Origin: a virus
Lineage: Duplodnaviria; Caudoviricetes
Virus record (IMG/VR): IMGVR_UViG_3300022930_000015
Coordinates: 1-40,467 of that record
Direction: 5' to 3' (one strand)
Length of the DNA stretch: 40,467 nucleotides
The translations under genes were made by a program, and so were the position numbers. This document shows, piece by piece, positions 3,695 through 40,467 of this stretch. Below the pieces are notes generated by a model. It was not told the origin of the DNA and searched no databases. It worked only from the letters and a program-made list of their open reading frames with translations. Numbering within the stretch: the stretch's first letter is position 1; each line of letters opens with the position of its first letter.

Positions 3695-3950
3695 GATATT
3701 TTCCTTTATTTAAAAACCTGTAAACTACAATTAATTTACATGTGCTTAAATAAGGGTGAGATGCCTTAAAATACGGCTACTATCATTTGTTTAGTAATTT
3801 TATACATAGTAGGTACAATACTAACAAACAGTCGTCAGCATCTCATTGTAATTAAAAAATCTAACTAAAAGGATTATTTTATGGTAACTTTTAGCTAGCA
3901 AAAACTTTATGTTTTTTGATAAATTGTTAAAGAACGTTTTTTATATTTGT

Positions 3951-3979
3951 AGTGTACACTGTACATATTATTATGTCAA
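3951..3979 (-). promoter_or_regulatory. Leftward sigma70-type promoter
   Basis: TTGACA-17 nt-TACACT on the minus strand. Confidence 0.75.
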
Positions 3980-3986
3980 TACCTTA

Positions 3987-4015
3987 TTGCAAATATATTT
4001 AATATGTAGTATTAT
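3987..4015 (+). promoter_or_regulatory. Rightward sigma70-type promoter for the HTH gene
   Basis: TTGCAA-17 nt-TATTAT, back to back with the leftward promoter. Confidence 0.65.
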
Positions 4016-4042
4016 TGCAATAAATAAATAAAAGCACTGTAC

Positions 4043-4270
4043 ATGAAAAAGTTATATATTAATGATGATTTATTAATTCAGGTATTAGACCTAATAAAAA
4101 GCGATAACAAAGCTAGTAAATCTACATTAGCTAGTATTTTAAAAGTATCTAGGGCAACGATTGATAGGGCTATAACCAAATTAAAATTACTAGGCTATAT
4201 TAAAACTAAAAAAAGAATTGGGATCGTGGAGCAGTATCAGGTAATTAATCAGATTTTGAAAAAGGATTAA
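4043..4270 (+). CDS. Winged helix-turn-helix DNA-binding protein (Cro/repressor position)
   Basis: SKSTLASILKVSRATIDRAITKLKLLGYI is a typical wHTH; it is the first gene after the divergent promoters. Confidence 0.8.
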   Translation: MKKLYINDDLLIQVLDLIKSDNKASKSTLASILKVSRATIDRAITKLKLLGYIKTKKRIGIVEQYQVINQILKKD

Positions 4271-4694: not shown

Positions 4695-4711
4695 AACCCA
4701 CTGAGTGGGTT
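4695..4711. terminator. Hairpin between convergent operons (probable bidirectional terminator)
   Basis: AACCCAC-tga-GTGGGTT with A/T-rich flanks. Confidence 0.65.
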
Positions 4712-5053: not shown

Positions 5054-5260
5054 TTAATTTTGCTTGCTGTTTGTTGTTGTCCAATACTCTTTGCCATCAC
5101 AAATATATTTATATTTAGTCTCAAAGAGTTTTCTAATTAGATTGTATTCGGTTTTACTTTCATTGGTCTGCACACATTTTGCCTTATACAAATTTTCGTA
5201 TTCACTTTCATTTGAACACCCAGCCAATAAAATAAACATTACAAATAATATTTTTTTCAT
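5054..5260 (-). CDS. Predicted lipoprotein
   Basis: MKKILFVMFILLAG-C lipobox signal peptide. Confidence 0.75.
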   Translation of the reverse strand: MKKILFVMFILLAGCSNESEYENLYKAKCVQTNESKTEYNLIRKLFETKYKYICDGKEYWTTTNSKQN

Positions 5261-5273
5261 TAATACCCCGCCT

Positions 5274-5444
5274 TTATAATCTACAAATTTCTTTAATTTC
5301 TTTTAAAGAATATTCTTTGTTATTTTTAATGCATTCATTGTCAATTTGTTTACTGCCTAAAACATAGCCAGTAATGATTATACCTATTGCGATAATAAAC
5401 ATTGCTATCATATCCATAGTATCGCCCATAAATGTATTTCTCAT
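5274..5444 (-). CDS. Small membrane protein, 56 aa (not in ORF track)
   Basis: MRNTFMGDTMDMIAMFIIAIGIIITGYVLG...; fills the gap between two same-strand genes. Confidence 0.55.
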   Translation of the reverse strand: MRNTFMGDTMDMIAMFIIAIGIIITGYVLGSKQIDNECIKNNKEYSLKEIKEICRL

Positions 5445-5447
5445 TAT

Positions 5448-6062
5448 TTAATACCCCGCCTTTATTACGTTTTTCAAATTATTTTCTGCTACAATCGAGC
5501 CTATGCCGTCATGTTCCTGTTTAGGTTTCTTTAAAGCAGGCGGTGCTTTCTTTGCCTGCCAGCTAAAAGGATTATTAGGCGTTTTAACATGCTTTTTAGG
5601 CTCATGGTAAGCATTTTGTACTAATTGTAATGGATTGGCTTTCCTACCGCAATTTTTATCATCAGCGTTATATTTGCAGTAGTAAGCTAAGTTCTCTTGA
5701 TTAAGGTAGTTTTGTTGTTGGCTATAGCTGTTATTGTAATTTACTCTTAGATGTTCAACATCACGCATTGCGTACATATCAGCCTTGCCGTCTGTGAAGC
5801 TATTTTCTGCCGATTTATAGTAAGTTTTGAGTTTTGACCTAACTTCTTTTAAAATTGCTTGAGACTCATTAGGCTTTAATATCTGCCCATTGTCTACCTT
5901 ATTATCAACGGTATTGACACGCTTATCAAAAGTAGCAGTTGCTATCACACAGAATATTGCTATACCGCTAAAGCCTGCTATGACTGCCGTGTTTAGTATT
6001 GTGGTTGCTTTGCTTGGTTGCTTAACGTAAGTATCTACGCTTGAATGAATTTGTTTTGACAT
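5448..6062 (-). CDS. Membrane-anchored hypothetical protein (start reassigned to ATG at 6062, 204 aa)
   Basis: AAGGT RBS before MSKQIHSS; one TM segment (AVIAGFSGIAIFCVIATA). The upstream in-frame stretch is better explained as a structured RNA leader. Confidence 0.7.
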   Translation of the reverse strand: MSKQIHSSVDTYVKQPSKATTILNTAVIAGFSGIAIFCVIATATFDKRVNTVDNKVDNGQILKPNESQAILKEVRSKLKTYYKSAENSFTDGKADMYAMRDVEHLRVNYNNSYSQQQNYLNQENLAYYCKYNADDKNCGRKANPLQLVQNAYHEPKKHVKTPNNPFSWQAKKAPPALKKPKQEHDGIGSIVAENNLKNVIKAGY

Positions 6063-6093
6063 TTTACTTTTACCTTTCCAGTGGTTTTTAATT

Positions 6094-6161
6094 AAAAAAA
6101 GTGACGCTGGAAACAATGAAGTAAAACATTGTGAATAATTAAATATTCCGTCACTTTCTTT
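6094..6161 (-). ncRNA. C4-like antisense RNA
   Basis: Closing stem AAAGTGACG/CGTCACTTT, hairpin GAATA/TATTC, hairpin ACAATG/CATTGT with loop TTTTACTT, then single-stranded TTCCAG. Complementary target pairs lie both upstream and at the downstream RBS. Confidence 0.75.
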
Positions 6162-6222
6162 TATAAGTATATCACGAAATATTAACAATCTCTACTTTTT
6201 AACGCTTCCAGACGTTTTAAAT

Positions 6223-6251
6223 ATATTAGCAAAAAGCTTAAAACATTGCAA
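6223..6251 (-). promoter_or_regulatory. Sigma70-type promoter for the C4-like RNA operon
   Basis: TTGCAA-17 nt-TAATAT with TGn extended -10. Confidence 0.7.
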
Positions 6252-6272
6252 GCGTTTGTTTTTCAAATACAA

Positions 6273-6552: not shown

Positions 6553-7389
6553 CTACTCTTGTTGATCTTTAATATTTTCAAATAATCCACATTTATGTAA
6601 ATTATCTTGGATAATACATACGCCCAAATAAGAAGTTCGGGCTTTTAAAGATATTAATTCTGCCTTTCTTTCTGTATATTCAGGATTAAAATACGATTCT
6701 CTATATAATCCAATTACATTATCTGATAAATTGATTATGCATGAATAATTAATATCAGATAAGATTGGTCTTTTATAACCTCTTTTCTGCACTTCAGAAT
6801 TAGTAGTTGCAGTTATTATTACAGGGCATTTTAAGATTTTAGCTAAATATTTTATTTCGCAATAAAATTTAGCGATTTGTTCTTCTCGACTTAAATTATC
6901 ATTTTTAAAATCAATATAATCACTACTATCAATAAAAATACAATCTATTTTATTGATATTTTTAATTTTTTCCTCTATATCATTAGAATTAATTTTTATA
7001 TCATCAATAATATAAAAAATTTTCTCAGAAATCGTGTTTATTGACTTTGATATATCTACCCATTCTGGATGGTCAATATTCCCAGTAGATAATCTCATGT
7101 GATTTATTCCAGATGCATTAGATATAATTCTATTAATCAAGGAGCTAGCATTAATTTCCCCTGATACATATACTATTGACAAATTTTGATAAAAAGACAT
7201 GTTTGTAGCTATATTTATAGCTAAAGCTGTTTTTCCAATGCCAGTTTCGCCAATTATTGTAGTTATCTCACCCTCTTTAAATCCTCCATTAATTATATCT
7301 AAATGAGTAAAACCGCTTGAGATTTTTGGAATAGTATTATCATTATCAATTTTATTAATAAAATTAATTATATTTTCTTTGGAATCCAT
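6553..7389 (-). CDS. DnaB-like helicase, C-terminal ATPase domain only
   Basis: ISSGFTHLD..NGGF, Walker A GETGIGKT, VSGE, LAKILKCPVI, RPILSD, D.VIGLYR and KAR motifs; only 278 aa, with no N-terminal DnaB domain. Confidence 0.85.
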   Translation of the reverse strand: MDSKENIINFINKIDNDNTIPKISSGFTHLDIINGGFKEGEITTIIGETGIGKTALAINIATNMSFYQNLSIVYVSGEINASSLINRIISNASGINHMRLSTGNIDHPEWVDISKSINTISEKIFYIIDDIKINSNDIEEKIKNINKIDCIFIDSSDYIDFKNDNLSREEQIAKFYCEIKYLAKILKCPVIITATTNSEVQKRGYKRPILSDINYSCIINLSDNVIGLYRESYFNPEYTERKAELISLKARTSYLGVCIIQDNLHKCGLFENIKDQQE

Positions 7390-7529: not shown

Positions 7530-7637
7530 TAGTTTTTTTAGGTATGCAAAGTAGTTTTTTTAGGTATGCAAAGTAGTTTTTTTAGGTATGCAAAGTAGTT
7601 TTTTTAGGTATGCAAAGTAGTTTTTTTAGGTATGCAA
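7530..7637 (+). repeat. Iteron array: TAGTTTTTTTAGGTATGCAAAG, four full copies plus one 20-bp copy
   Basis: Perfect head-to-tail 22-bp repeats without spacers, upstream of a Rep_3-like gene. Confidence 0.92.
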
Positions 7638-8009: not shown

Positions 8010-8146
8010 TAGGGTATAAATACCAATTTACAAAAGAATGTAGCCAAATAGTTACATCAATCAAAAATCGATTTACAAAAACAAAGATTAAGAATAAATT
8101 AAAAGCTATTAATTTAACTAGCCTACAAGGGGTTAGATATGTATAG
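7988..8146 (+). CDS. Putative rep leader peptide, 52 aa (not in ORF track)
   Basis: AAGGA RBS at 7974-7978; MHKQEKSIGYKY...GVRYV*; its stop lies just past the rep ATG at 8139. Confidence 0.55.
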   Translation: MHKQEKSIGYKYQFTKECSQIVTSIKNRFTKTKIKNKLKAINLTSLQGVRYV

Positions 8147-9647
8147 TTCTACAGTTTTTCAAAAATCTAATTTTCTTATTAATTTAAAAAATCAACACAC
8201 AACTCTTGAACAAAAGTTCATTAATAATACGTTATACCATGTTTACAATATGGAAAATGCTTTAATTAATGCAGTTTATAGCAAAGAATTTATTAATATT
8301 TTGGGTAGCTATAAATCAACCCAACTAAAAGCTTATAAAATCTTTGACGGCATAATGAAAAAGCCTATGCATTTTATTGAGCCGACTGATGAAGAGTTTA
8401 ACATAGTACATATGTTCGCTAGTACAAAGCTAAGTAAACAAGAAAAATTAATATATTTTCAATTATCAGAAGAATATAAAAAGTATTGTTTTATCAAGAA
8501 CAAAAGTGATGATGAATTAATTAAACTTGGATTTACCAATTTGGACATTGAAAGTATAAATAATCTAAGTGGGAAGCACGCAATCAAAGGTTATGAGATA
8601 TTTAAGTCTGAATGTTTTGCAAGTAAAAAAATAGAAATTTGCCCAAAAGAACTGTATCAAAAATTAGGAATTGAAAGCAATTTTTATGATAGCTACTTTC
8701 AATTTAAGGCAAAATTATTAAAGCCAATGATAGAGCAAATAAATGACGTTTGCAAAGATTTTAAATTACTAAAATATGAGCCTATTAAAAATTTTGCTGG
8801 TAAAATCGTTAAAATAGAGCTTATTTGCCAAAAAATAGAGCCAAAAGAAACTACAATCTTTGCACCTAGTCAAGAAATAAAGCCAATAGCAACCCCAACA
8901 CCTAATCCAGTTGAGGCAGGAATCAACTTACCTAGCCCAGTTGCTTATATGATTAATTTAGGCGGTAAAAAAGCGGAATTAATGAGTTTTTGGAATGATG
9001 ATAAACAGGCTTATTTAACAGCATATAACGCCGTTAAATCATATAAAAAACCTGATCCATTAGTAAATCCAATAGGCTATTTTAAAAACTCTTACAACAA
9101 CATTATTCAATCAAAAGAGATTATAGTTGAAGAGGCTAAACCACAAGACCCAAAAGCCTCTTTTATATATCAAAACGATAAATATGCTGGAATACACAAA
9201 AATAATTGTGAAAATTCTTTAGGGCAAAAATACCAAACAGCCCAAGAATATAGTGAGTCTACTAAGCCAACAGAGGAAGATAAGGCTAATTTTGAGAGTC
9301 TAAAAGAGCAAGTAAAAAATAGATGGGAGGTATTGGCAGAAAATGAAAAAATTGATGTTTTAAATTCACTAGCTAAAGGTGAGAATATGCCTAAAAGTAT
9401 AATTACTTTGGCTAAACAGGCAATTGAACATAAAAAATTAGATTTTAATTATTTAAGTTCCAATGTACAATTTTTTGGATTTTTCAGCAATAGAGTAAAT
9501 GTAAAAACAGATAAATTGAAAGAGGTTTGTACAAATTCCTTACTCCAAATCCCCAATAAAACCCCCGCGAAGCCCCTGCTTGAACTAATAGAGGGCGGAT
9601 TAAGGGATTTGAACTGTGGTACTTGGACGGGGGAATTGGCTTTATGA
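8139..9647 (+). CDS. Plasmid-type replication initiator, Rep_3 family, with long C-terminal extension
   Basis: KSNFLI..LEQK, FT.LDIESINNLSGKHAIKGYE, EL..KLG...Y..FK..LLKP.IEQIN and YEPIK..G.IVKI match the Rep_3 pattern; adjacent to iterons. Confidence 0.85.
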   Translation: MYSSTVFQKSNFLINLKNQHTTLEQKFINNTLYHVYNMENALINAVYSKEFINILGSYKSTQLKAYKIFDGIMKKPMHFIEPTDEEFNIVHMFASTKLSKQEKLIYFQLSEEYKKYCFIKNKSDDELIKLGFTNLDIESINNLSGKHAIKGYEIFKSECFASKKIEICPKELYQKLGIESNFYDSYFQFKAKLLKPMIEQINDVCKDFKLLKYEPIKNFAGKIVKIELICQKIEPKETTIFAPSQEIKPIATPTPNPVEAGINLPSPVAYMINLGGKKAELMSFWNDDKQAYLTAYNAVKSYKKPDPLVNPIGYFKNSYNNIIQSKEIIVEEAKPQDPKASFIYQNDKYAGIHKNNCENSLGQKYQTAQEYSESTKPTEEDKANFESLKEQVKNRWEVLAENEKIDVLNSLAKGENMPKSIITLAKQAIEHKKLDFNYLSSNVQFFGFFSNRVNVKTDKLKEVCTNSLLQIPNKTPAKPLLELIEGGLRDLNCGTWTGELAL

Positions 9648-40333: not shown

Positions 40334-40467
40334 AAAAGGTAAAATGATAATTAAGAGTTCTTGCTTTTATATCTCCATCAGATAAATCATCGAACAAAAT
40401 TAAATTTTTGTCCTGCTCAAGATTAAATAATATTGATGCATCACTCCTTAATGTTTCTTAATGCTTT
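40334..40467 (+). repeat. Terminal direct repeat / circular overlap, right copy
   Basis: Matches 1-136 with a 2-nt deletion near its end. Confidence 0.97.

Follow-up and report, generated by a model that had tools for sequence, protein, structure and literature searches.

A putative C4-like antisense RNA switch ahead of a membrane-protein operon in a plausible phage-plasmid

The viral genome studied here (40,467 nt, analysed at full length and called the window in the following) carries on its minus strand a short structured RNA flanked on both sides by segments that are complementary to its unpaired parts. Does this locus encode an antisense RNA switch of the kind known from the C4 RNA of phage P1, and if so, how is it wired, which genes does it control and does it provide the immunity of its phage? 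A sequence-only reading had proposed a C4-like system connected to a membrane-protein operon. We studied this proposal by means of folding models, shuffling statistics, homology searches and genome comparison.

With its first bases reappearing at 40334, the window represents a complete circular phage genome (32% G+C). Its gene content includes head and tail genes, Sak4, SSB, a Gam-like gene and Rha, and the best matches of Sak4, portal and capsid are mostly to Proteobacteria or their phages (39-54% identity). Since a Rep3 initiator (8139-9647) is accompanied by 22-bp iterons (7530-7637, 4.9 copies) and no integrase was found among the 62 window ORFs scanned, we infer a plasmid prophage state, i.e., the phage is plausibly a phage-plasmid. 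Genome comparisons are based on three related complete genomes, namely the window, G001 (without its last 338 bases) and G002. The Rep3 slot differs among these sister genomes, which hold different Rep3 N-terminal parts or genes there, and a stand-alone DnaB C-terminal helicase domain (window 6553-7389) is missing in both sister genomes of the window.

The small RNA and its target pairs

The minus-strand segment 6160-6094 is predicted to fold into a C4-shaped small RNA of 67 nt, i.e., a three-way junction with a folding energy of -19.9 kcal/mol (z = -5.55; equally stable shuffles 0/200). Its 12-bp closing stem (6160-6149/6106-6095) carries hairpin P2 (6148-6133) and hairpin P3 (6132-6113), the latter with seed b' TTTTACTT in its loop (6126-6119). 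The second seed, a' (TTCCAG, 6112-6107), is located in the single-stranded 3' junction strand, and a U7 run (6100-6094) directly follows the closing stem. The multi-stem RNA and the loop seed of the sequence-only reading are recovered by this fold, while TTCCAG, which was said to lie in a bulge, belongs to the unpaired 3' strand of the three-way junction. The G+C content of the RNA is 25%, which sets it apart from P1/P7 C4.

Both seeds find a counterpart on either side of the RNA. Upstream, target a1 (6201..6215, minus strand; based on sequence and folding) presents CTGGAA (6211-6206) in the loop of a 5-bp hairpin of the nascent leader; a predicted duplex of about 12 bp joins this target to the junction seed and the closing stem's 3' strand. 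Target b1 (6185..6197, minus strand) consists of AAGTAGAG (6197-6190) with the extension ATTGT and overlaps the -35 element of the inner promoter candidate introduced below. Downstream, target pair 2 (6062..6081, minus strand) is formed by a2 (CTGGAA, 6081-6076) and b2 (AAGTAAAA, 6069-6062). All four words are found on the minus strand exactly where they had been reported. The same holds for the claim that pair 2 spans the ribosome-binding site and reaches the start codon, i.e., the Shine-Dalgarno-like AAGGT (6076-6072) lies inside the pair and b2 extends to the A of the ATG at 6062-6060. Both a1 and a2 fold into hairpin loops, in the window as in P1.

The bipartite target word CTGGAA-N(4-12)-AAGTARAR occurs on the minus strand of the whole window at 6211 and 6081 only, and its sole plus-strand occurrence is the complement of the RNA itself. 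When only the unpaired parts of the fold are used as seeds, the upstream flank reaches a complementarity score of 30 (reached by 0/3000 dinucleotide shuffles) and the downstream flank a score of 32 (1/3000), such that the p-value per flank is about 3e-4 or lower. Not a single one of 2673 other 60-nt windows of the genome scores above 28. That is, the feature is real and far beyond chance. The seed duplexes are AU-rich and weak (-7.1 to -7.5 and -5.0 kcal/mol), and net binding amounts to about -0.7 kcal/mol for target pair 2 and -3.9 kcal/mol for pair 1 in a nested-structure model, which does not include loop-loop pairing. We consider it very likely that the locus is a C4-like antisense switch.

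Comparison with known RNAs and search for relatives

With regard to architecture, the predicted fold of the window RNA arranges the stems P1, P2 and P3 around a three-way junction whose 3' strand is single-stranded; b' is located in the loop of P3 and a' in that 3' strand. On the same strand, a1/b1 are found upstream and a2/b2 downstream at the ribosome-binding site. P1 C4 likewise stacks P2 and P3 on its closing stem, with b' and a' at the same two positions. Both loci follow the order a1-b1-RNA-a2-b2-start codon, use seeds of 6-8 nt and belong to a plasmid prophage genome (plausibly so for the window). The three stems of P1 C4, its processing by RNase P and the occlusion of the ribosome site by b' are described in the accessible part of PMC5320573.

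The layout proposed earlier is therefore supported in terms of topology, seed positions and a-then-b order, which are those of P1 C4 and N15 CA, but not as a divergent member of the family. The Rfam C4 clan (RF01695, CL00128) gives no match in the window at E <=5 and none in the 351-nt and 86-nt stretches at E <=10, where the weak rows are unrelated families far under their cut-offs, although the controls P1 (68.8 bits), P4 (74.9 bits) and N15 (78.8 bits) are detected. The check by Rfam C4 models that had been suggested was thus negative, and we state that the RNA works like C4 and do not claim family membership. Neither c4-a1b1 (RF03163) nor an isrK-type leader is matched by Rfam in the window, a leader of one or the other type being found in P1, P4 and N15; of the P1-type leader, only the a1-presenting hairpin is common to the window. 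Local alignments of the RNA to the P1, N15 and P4 regions yield scraps of 15-19 bases only.

A sequence-free descriptor (junction shape plus colinear targets on both sides) returned 720 candidates in 12 sources. The top four are N15 (35), P1 (35), the window (31) and the copy in G001 (31), and all others score at most 28. Since the descriptor was written with P1 and the window RNA known and leaves P4 CI outside its top 25, this ranking supports the likeness and is no blind test.

The differences concern promoters, RNA ends and controlled genes. The annotated P1 record has the order P2c4, P1c4, a1, b1, c4, a2, b2, icd, i.e., both annotated promoters are upstream of a1, whereas the window has a promoter-like site between b1 and the RNA. 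The closing stem has 12 bp compared to 17 bp in P1/N15, and the 5' GG of the P1/N15 cleavage context is absent. The window RNA has its U7 run, whereas in the fetched records the 3' ends of the P1, N15 and P4 RNAs are free of such a run. Unlike P1 immI, the window operon has no icd or ant directly downstream, and none of the ORFs downstream of the RNA matches icd, kil or an antirepressor.

N15 CA, the top descriptor match, has the same fold and flanking target pairs as the window RNA, but it matches RF01695 at 78.8 bits, has an isrK-like leader and controls icd and antirepressor genes (immA: icd, antA, antB), none of which holds for the window. As far as the available part of PMC4488713 goes, immA is a secondary and not the primary control region of N15. 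P4 CI is, like the window RNA, a same-strand small RNA with targets on both sides, and is described to act via premature transcription termination (PMC4825925, PMC10111431, accessible parts). In P4, an isrK-like leader with its own structure is found upstream of CI and CI is processed, whereas the predicted terminator of the window is the closing stem of the RNA. The P4 RNA protects replication genes, of which the window operon has none, and confers full immunity. Because P4 CI controls replication genes and P4 immunity rests on this RNA according to the accessible part of PMC4825925, the control of non-antirepressor genes is not new. Further C4/CI sources, each in the part available, are PMC2864571 and PMC8198154; c4-2 is described in PMC5737381. 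In the literature searched, which covers subscription papers thinly and is thus weak evidence of novelty, we found no C4-shaped RNA described as having both a promoter and a terminator of its own.

Attenuators offer another point of reference. In pT181 and pIP501, a small RNA on the nascent leader prevents the anti-terminator, which leads to termination; this antisense RNA is an opposite-strand transcript with full complementarity. The window RNA, in contrast, is from the same strand, has two short seeds and would itself be the terminator.

The only other full copy of the RNA that we found is the identical one in G001, such that the two copies show no covariation of seeds and targets, and the following searches returned no divergent relative. 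Searching phages and plasmids by blastn gave chance pieces of 26-39 nt only, and pattern scans of viral sequences returned G001 only. A scan for the closing stem identified 39 loci, among which the layout, judged from folds, matches in the G001 locus only. Scanning for target 1 plus seeds gave two loci, namely G001 and a chance match in a long polymerase-like ORF (z = 0.18). A one-sequence covariance model yielded nothing below E 0.1 in 165 kb apart from the two identical copies and the reverse strands of both. No RNA holder is listed among 4 sequencing runs. Contigs that match in part at 6142-6179 (7 differences in 38 AT-rich bases) were set aside as chance, while a single record of 151 bases in run X4 spans 6125-6262 and deviates at 3 positions.

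Two other structured elements were observed. Many related viral contigs (L016 601-650 and about 16 loci of this kind, e.g., L017, L018, L020, L024, L026) share a conserved two-hairpin element of 50 nt. It has a GGTTCGATTCC loop resembling that of a tRNA T-arm, after which come a second hairpin and a ribosome site, and it is unrelated to the C4-like RNA. In L022, L029 and L035 (about 601-666), a conserved structured element hides AGGAGG in a stem and ends in a U run, which we take to resemble a type I toxin-antitoxin leader.

Could the C4-like locus be just an ordinary terminator or the relic of an inverted duplication, with complementarities that have no regulatory role? The DNA is AT-rich, the leader repeats the RNA imperfectly in inverted orientation, and the identity of the sole other full copy leaves this reading uncontradicted by covariation. 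Yet both flanks match the unpaired seeds exactly, pair 2 does not match the stems, and the arrangement was recovered alongside two known C4 RNAs. Furthermore, a plain terminator 30 nt ahead of a gene, with no escape route, would silence that gene. We consider a terminator or relic without regulatory role highly improbable.

Promoters, leader folding and the proposed switch

We identified two promoter candidates ahead of the RNA. The outer one (6223..6251, minus strand; inferred from sequence) consists of -35 TTGCAA (6251-6246), a 17-nt spacer, TG (6231-6230) and -10 TAATAT (6228-6223), with the start expected near 6216. The promoter noticed earlier is indeed in the sequence, as TTGCAA-17-TAATAT, but agrees with the consensus in 8/12 bases only and is not listed by the promoter scanner because this falls under its threshold. 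Its TTGCAA is reused as -35 at two scanner-listed sites (3987-4015 and 4020-3992). A 10-nt inverted repeat links its -35 region (6257-6247) with target a1 (6210-6201, minus strand) and might serve as an operator or keep a1 sequestered when transcripts read through.

The inner candidate (6166..6194, minus strand; promoter scan) has -35 TAGAGA (6194-6189), a 17-nt spacer and the extended -10 TG-A-TATACT (6174-6166). Transcription is expected to start 6-8 nt past a -10 hexamer, and the predicted start at about 6160-6158 coincides with the 5' end of the RNA. Sites with TG and at least 5/6 of the -10 element are found 30 times in the whole window (both strands; frequency 3.7e-4 per position), and the inner promoter is the only minus-strand extended -10 of that quality between 3000 and 8200. 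The promoter scan of the window as such shows no excess (35 promoter-like sites vs. a shuffle mean of 35.3).

The closing stem has a 6-bp core with 4 G-C pairs followed by 7 T. Its loop is the 42-nt domain, which is outside the rule of the terminator scanner, and the scanner does not call the stem plus U7 as a terminator. A terminator with a 42-nt two-hairpin domain as its loop is unusual. In view of the extended -10, the U7 run and the missing 5' GG, we regard a primary transcript, made from a promoter of its own and ended by its own terminator, as more likely than the processed RNA of 60-75 nt that had been expected before. The sequence-only reading had missed this promoter and the U7 run, as well as the pairing of the leader with the RNA in three helices.

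This pairing emerges from equilibrium folding without pseudoknots, where the transcript from the outer promoter forms a long rod of -31.3 kcal/mol vs. -26.4 kcal/mol with the cloverleaf forced. In these models, the three leader-RNA helices abolish the closing stem. One of them involves a third complementary segment, TAATATTTCG (6175..6184, minus strand), which had not been mentioned earlier; in co-transcriptional folding snapshots it pairs with 6150-6141 of the RNA and is predicted to nucleate the anti-terminator rod, which begins to form before P3 is transcribed. The closing stem has a predicted probability of 0.00 when transcription starts at 6250-6212 and of 0.99 when it starts at 6208-6160, i.e., the switch point falls between 6212 and 6208. 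For the starts 6216 and 6160, the prediction is unchanged at 15, 25 and 37 C. When a1, or a1 together with b1, is held unpaired, the closing stem returns to about 1.0, compared to 0.27 for b1 alone. For more upstream starts, values of 0.99 (6275-6260), 0.01 (6300) and 0.34 (6330) result. The prediction of an insulation against upstream read-through is therefore unstable, and this idea was dropped.

Based on these models, we propose the following wiring. Transcripts from the inner promoter (6194-6166) would start at about 6160 and fold into the three-way junction, whose closing stem and U7 would act as intrinsic terminator and release the 67-nt RNA without RNase P. Transcripts from the outer promoter would start at about 6216, and their leader would zip up with the RNA in three nested helices, such that the closing stem is blocked and polymerase reads through. 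In this ON state, the seeds would be buried in the read-through transcript and the ribosome site of the downstream gene, which encodes a 204-aa protein, would be free. Once accumulated, the small RNA would bind a1/b1 of new long transcripts, which would restore the closing stem and stop transcription at the U run; it would also cover a2/b2 on read-through messages and block their translation (OFF state). In a newly infected cell, membrane proteins would consequently appear in a short pulse, whereas the operon would stay silent wherever a plasmid prophage with identical seeds is already present. With regard to the role of such a pulse, we can only guess at an envelope change, e.g., one that causes entry exclusion or that arrests growth in the way of P1 Icd and P4 Kil. 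Given the folding models, we consider this combination, i.e., a self-terminating RNA from the inner promoter with attenuation and ribosome-site cover of the outer-promoter transcript, moderately likely.

A classical P1 mode would do with one outer-promoter transcript from which the RNA is excised by RNase P or other nucleases and mainly blocks translation at a2/b2, the inner promoter and U run being incidental. Fold and target layout are those of P1 C4, b2 extends to the start codon, and C4 and CI are RNase P substrates according to the available parts of PMC5320573 and PMC5499578. The long transcript, however, prefers the rod over the cloverleaf by the energies given above, which would leave little substrate for cutting. 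The cleavage context of P1/N15 with its 5' GG and 17-bp stem is not present, and a rare extended -10 is aimed at the 5' end of the RNA. Excision from a single long transcript is thus rather unlikely in our view.

Alternatively, ribosomes might decide on read-through, as known from P4, where CI lies within eta and translation of eta prevents termination (PMC10111431, accessible part). Here, the frame starting at TTG 6188, possibly coupled to upstream ORFs of the same frame, would be translated through the RNA. The respective in-frame extension (6063..6188, minus strand) comprises 42 codons, and the 43 codons before ATG 6062 are free of stops, as in 98/5000 shuffles. Between 6488 and 5448 (minus strand), a 71-aa gene, a 26-codon TTG ORF and the extension share one frame that is broken by TAG 6275 and 6194 only; one stop in 70 codons is seen in 42/4000 shuffles. 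Moreover, gene callers picked the resulting 246-aa form. On the other hand, TTG 6188 has no Shine-Dalgarno sequence (score -0.6 vs. -5.2 kcal/mol for ATG 6062), and in the rod, b1 as well as the TTG is engaged in base pairs. The codon score of the extension is not significant (equalled by 39/400 stop-free shuffles and 11/78 intergenic stop-free stretches), and no homologue has the extension. TAG is an ordinary stop in this genome (6/61 genes), and a recoding of TAG was dropped for that reason.

The position of ATG 6062 is the start of all 10 homologous proteins, with starts set by gene callers. Because these homologues begin there and a Shine-Dalgarno sequence is present, with none at TTG 6188, ATG 6062 is likely the start of the 204-aa gene, and the extension is probably not translated. 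Translation from TTG 6188, which the sequence-only reading had named as speaking against its proposal, thus lacks a ribosome site and conservation, but the frame is unusually open. We judge a translation-controlled read-through to be quite unlikely.

Returning to the self-terminating RNA, one may tentatively view the locus as a processing-free C4, i.e., a possible variant with the fold and two-seed logic of P1 C4 and no detectable sequence kinship, in which promoter choice sets an attenuator, the antisense RNA serves as a separate transcription unit and also as the terminator, and the whole is a swappable timer cassette for envelope genes that moves between otherwise different phages. If so, RNase P processing and a separate terminator are dispensable for a C4/CI switch, which would then fit into about 190 bases as a compact and re-targetable two-seed RNA timer, and a small family of phage membrane proteins would have its expression confined to a pulse. 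Such switches would then exist in AT-rich phages where covariance models miss them, and a sequence-free search for the fold with flanking targets would find them. If the C4-like fold arose independently, it would be a convergent design, with a class of such switches invisible to Rfam.

The controlled operon and the immunity question

As proposed earlier, the gene behind the RNA encodes a membrane-anchored protein of no known family. The 204-aa protein (5448..6062, minus strand) has one hydrophobic segment near its N terminus (about residues 22-40), which suggests a single-pass membrane protein, and no Pfam, PHROGs, NCBIfam or PADLOC family match; PADLOC matches none of the operon's proteins. 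Its family comprises at least 11 sequences, and two Cys (129, 138) are invariant in 11 aligned ones. The structure model is poor (pLDDT 55.7, pTM 0.28), with no Foldseek match at E <=0.001 and no usable Atlas match. A 56-aa membrane protein (5274..5444, minus strand) follows, which among the three genomes is found in the window only and is bounded by an 18-nt direct repeat. The next gene encodes a 68-aa lipoprotein-like protein with a LAGC motif (5054..5260, minus strand) and weak matches only (Cor, Rz-like, TrsH; E 6e-5 to 0.01). A spanin pair of the 204-aa protein and the lipoprotein was considered and dropped, since the genes are outside the lysis region and G002 retains the lipoprotein alone. 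A terminator-like site called by the scanner (4695..4711, minus strand) is the likely operon end.

Relatives of the 204-aa protein were found in three metagenome loci with context, i.e., the window's own contig, G001 and L011. None was found in the viral collection (short-form alignment) and tblastn gave no match in annotated phages; one genome match was discarded as an unrelated gene in a sugar-modification locus. The L011 homologue (45% identity) is the only distant one with context. It sits downstream of an ORF6C antirepressor and has no such RNA ahead, i.e., the link between RNA and membrane gene is not constant. In detail, L011 1-967 shows the ORF6C antirepressor, a Cys-rich 78-aa gene, a 66-aa membrane gene and then the homologue.

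Does the RNA provide the main immunity of the phage, as CI does for P4? This had been suggested for a phage with no recognisable CI, and indeed no CI/LexA-type repressor is found among the 62 ORFs; the role of the RNA in P4 immunity (PMC4825925, in the part available) provides a precedent. In the whole genome, however, no target pair is found ahead of Rep3, Rha (36340) or any other gene, and neither replication nor antirepressor genes are part of the operon, which probably ends at 4695. The cassette is missing from G002, the closer relative, where a 70-aa gene takes its place. G001 has identical seeds, yet it has only 23% of the window in common and a winged-HTH protein that is 47% identical (96% in G002). 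The winged-HTH gene itself (4043-4270) is divergent from the early recombination operon, from which it faces away across back-to-back promoter-like sites, and is by its position a candidate for the repressor of the primary lysis-lysogeny switch. The RNA as main immunity determinant is hence very improbable, and the case for an RNA-based immunity of this phage is weak. Nevertheless, when a phage with identical seeds enters, G001-type phages among them, the RNA could silence this one operon. The general view of phage immunity is unchanged by the locus, since such RNA switches, including ones guarding non-antirepressor genes, are already known.

The divergent control region around the winged-HTH gene (3695-4270) shows back-to-back TTGCAA promoters and a CACTGTACAT repeat in addition to this gene of 75 aa.

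Finally, we compared the cassette among the three genomes. RNA and all targets are unchanged in G001, where the non-coding stretch differs from the window in 1/210 bases compared to 30/1038 in the three flanking genes (Fisher p = 0.048). G002 shares 74% of the window at 94% identity and has no RNA cassette; its slot holds the different 70-aa gene with its own promoter-like site (L004 3389-3601). Since the cassette is present in G001, replaced in G002 and missing ahead of the L011 homologue, the switch is most likely an exchangeable accessory cassette and not the main immunity system. By eye, the 70-aa gene of G002 is HTH-like, and it has no family match.

The 18-nt direct repeat is located at window 5463-5448 and 5275-5260 (minus strand) as well as at L004 3614-3629. 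It contains the ribosome site of the next gene, encodes the K-A-G-Y end of the 204-aa protein and closes three genes, namely those of the 204-aa and 56-aa proteins and the one that replaces the cassette in G002. Judged from these junctions, genes appear to be swapped at the repeat, and contigs of run X2 display both alternative joins there.
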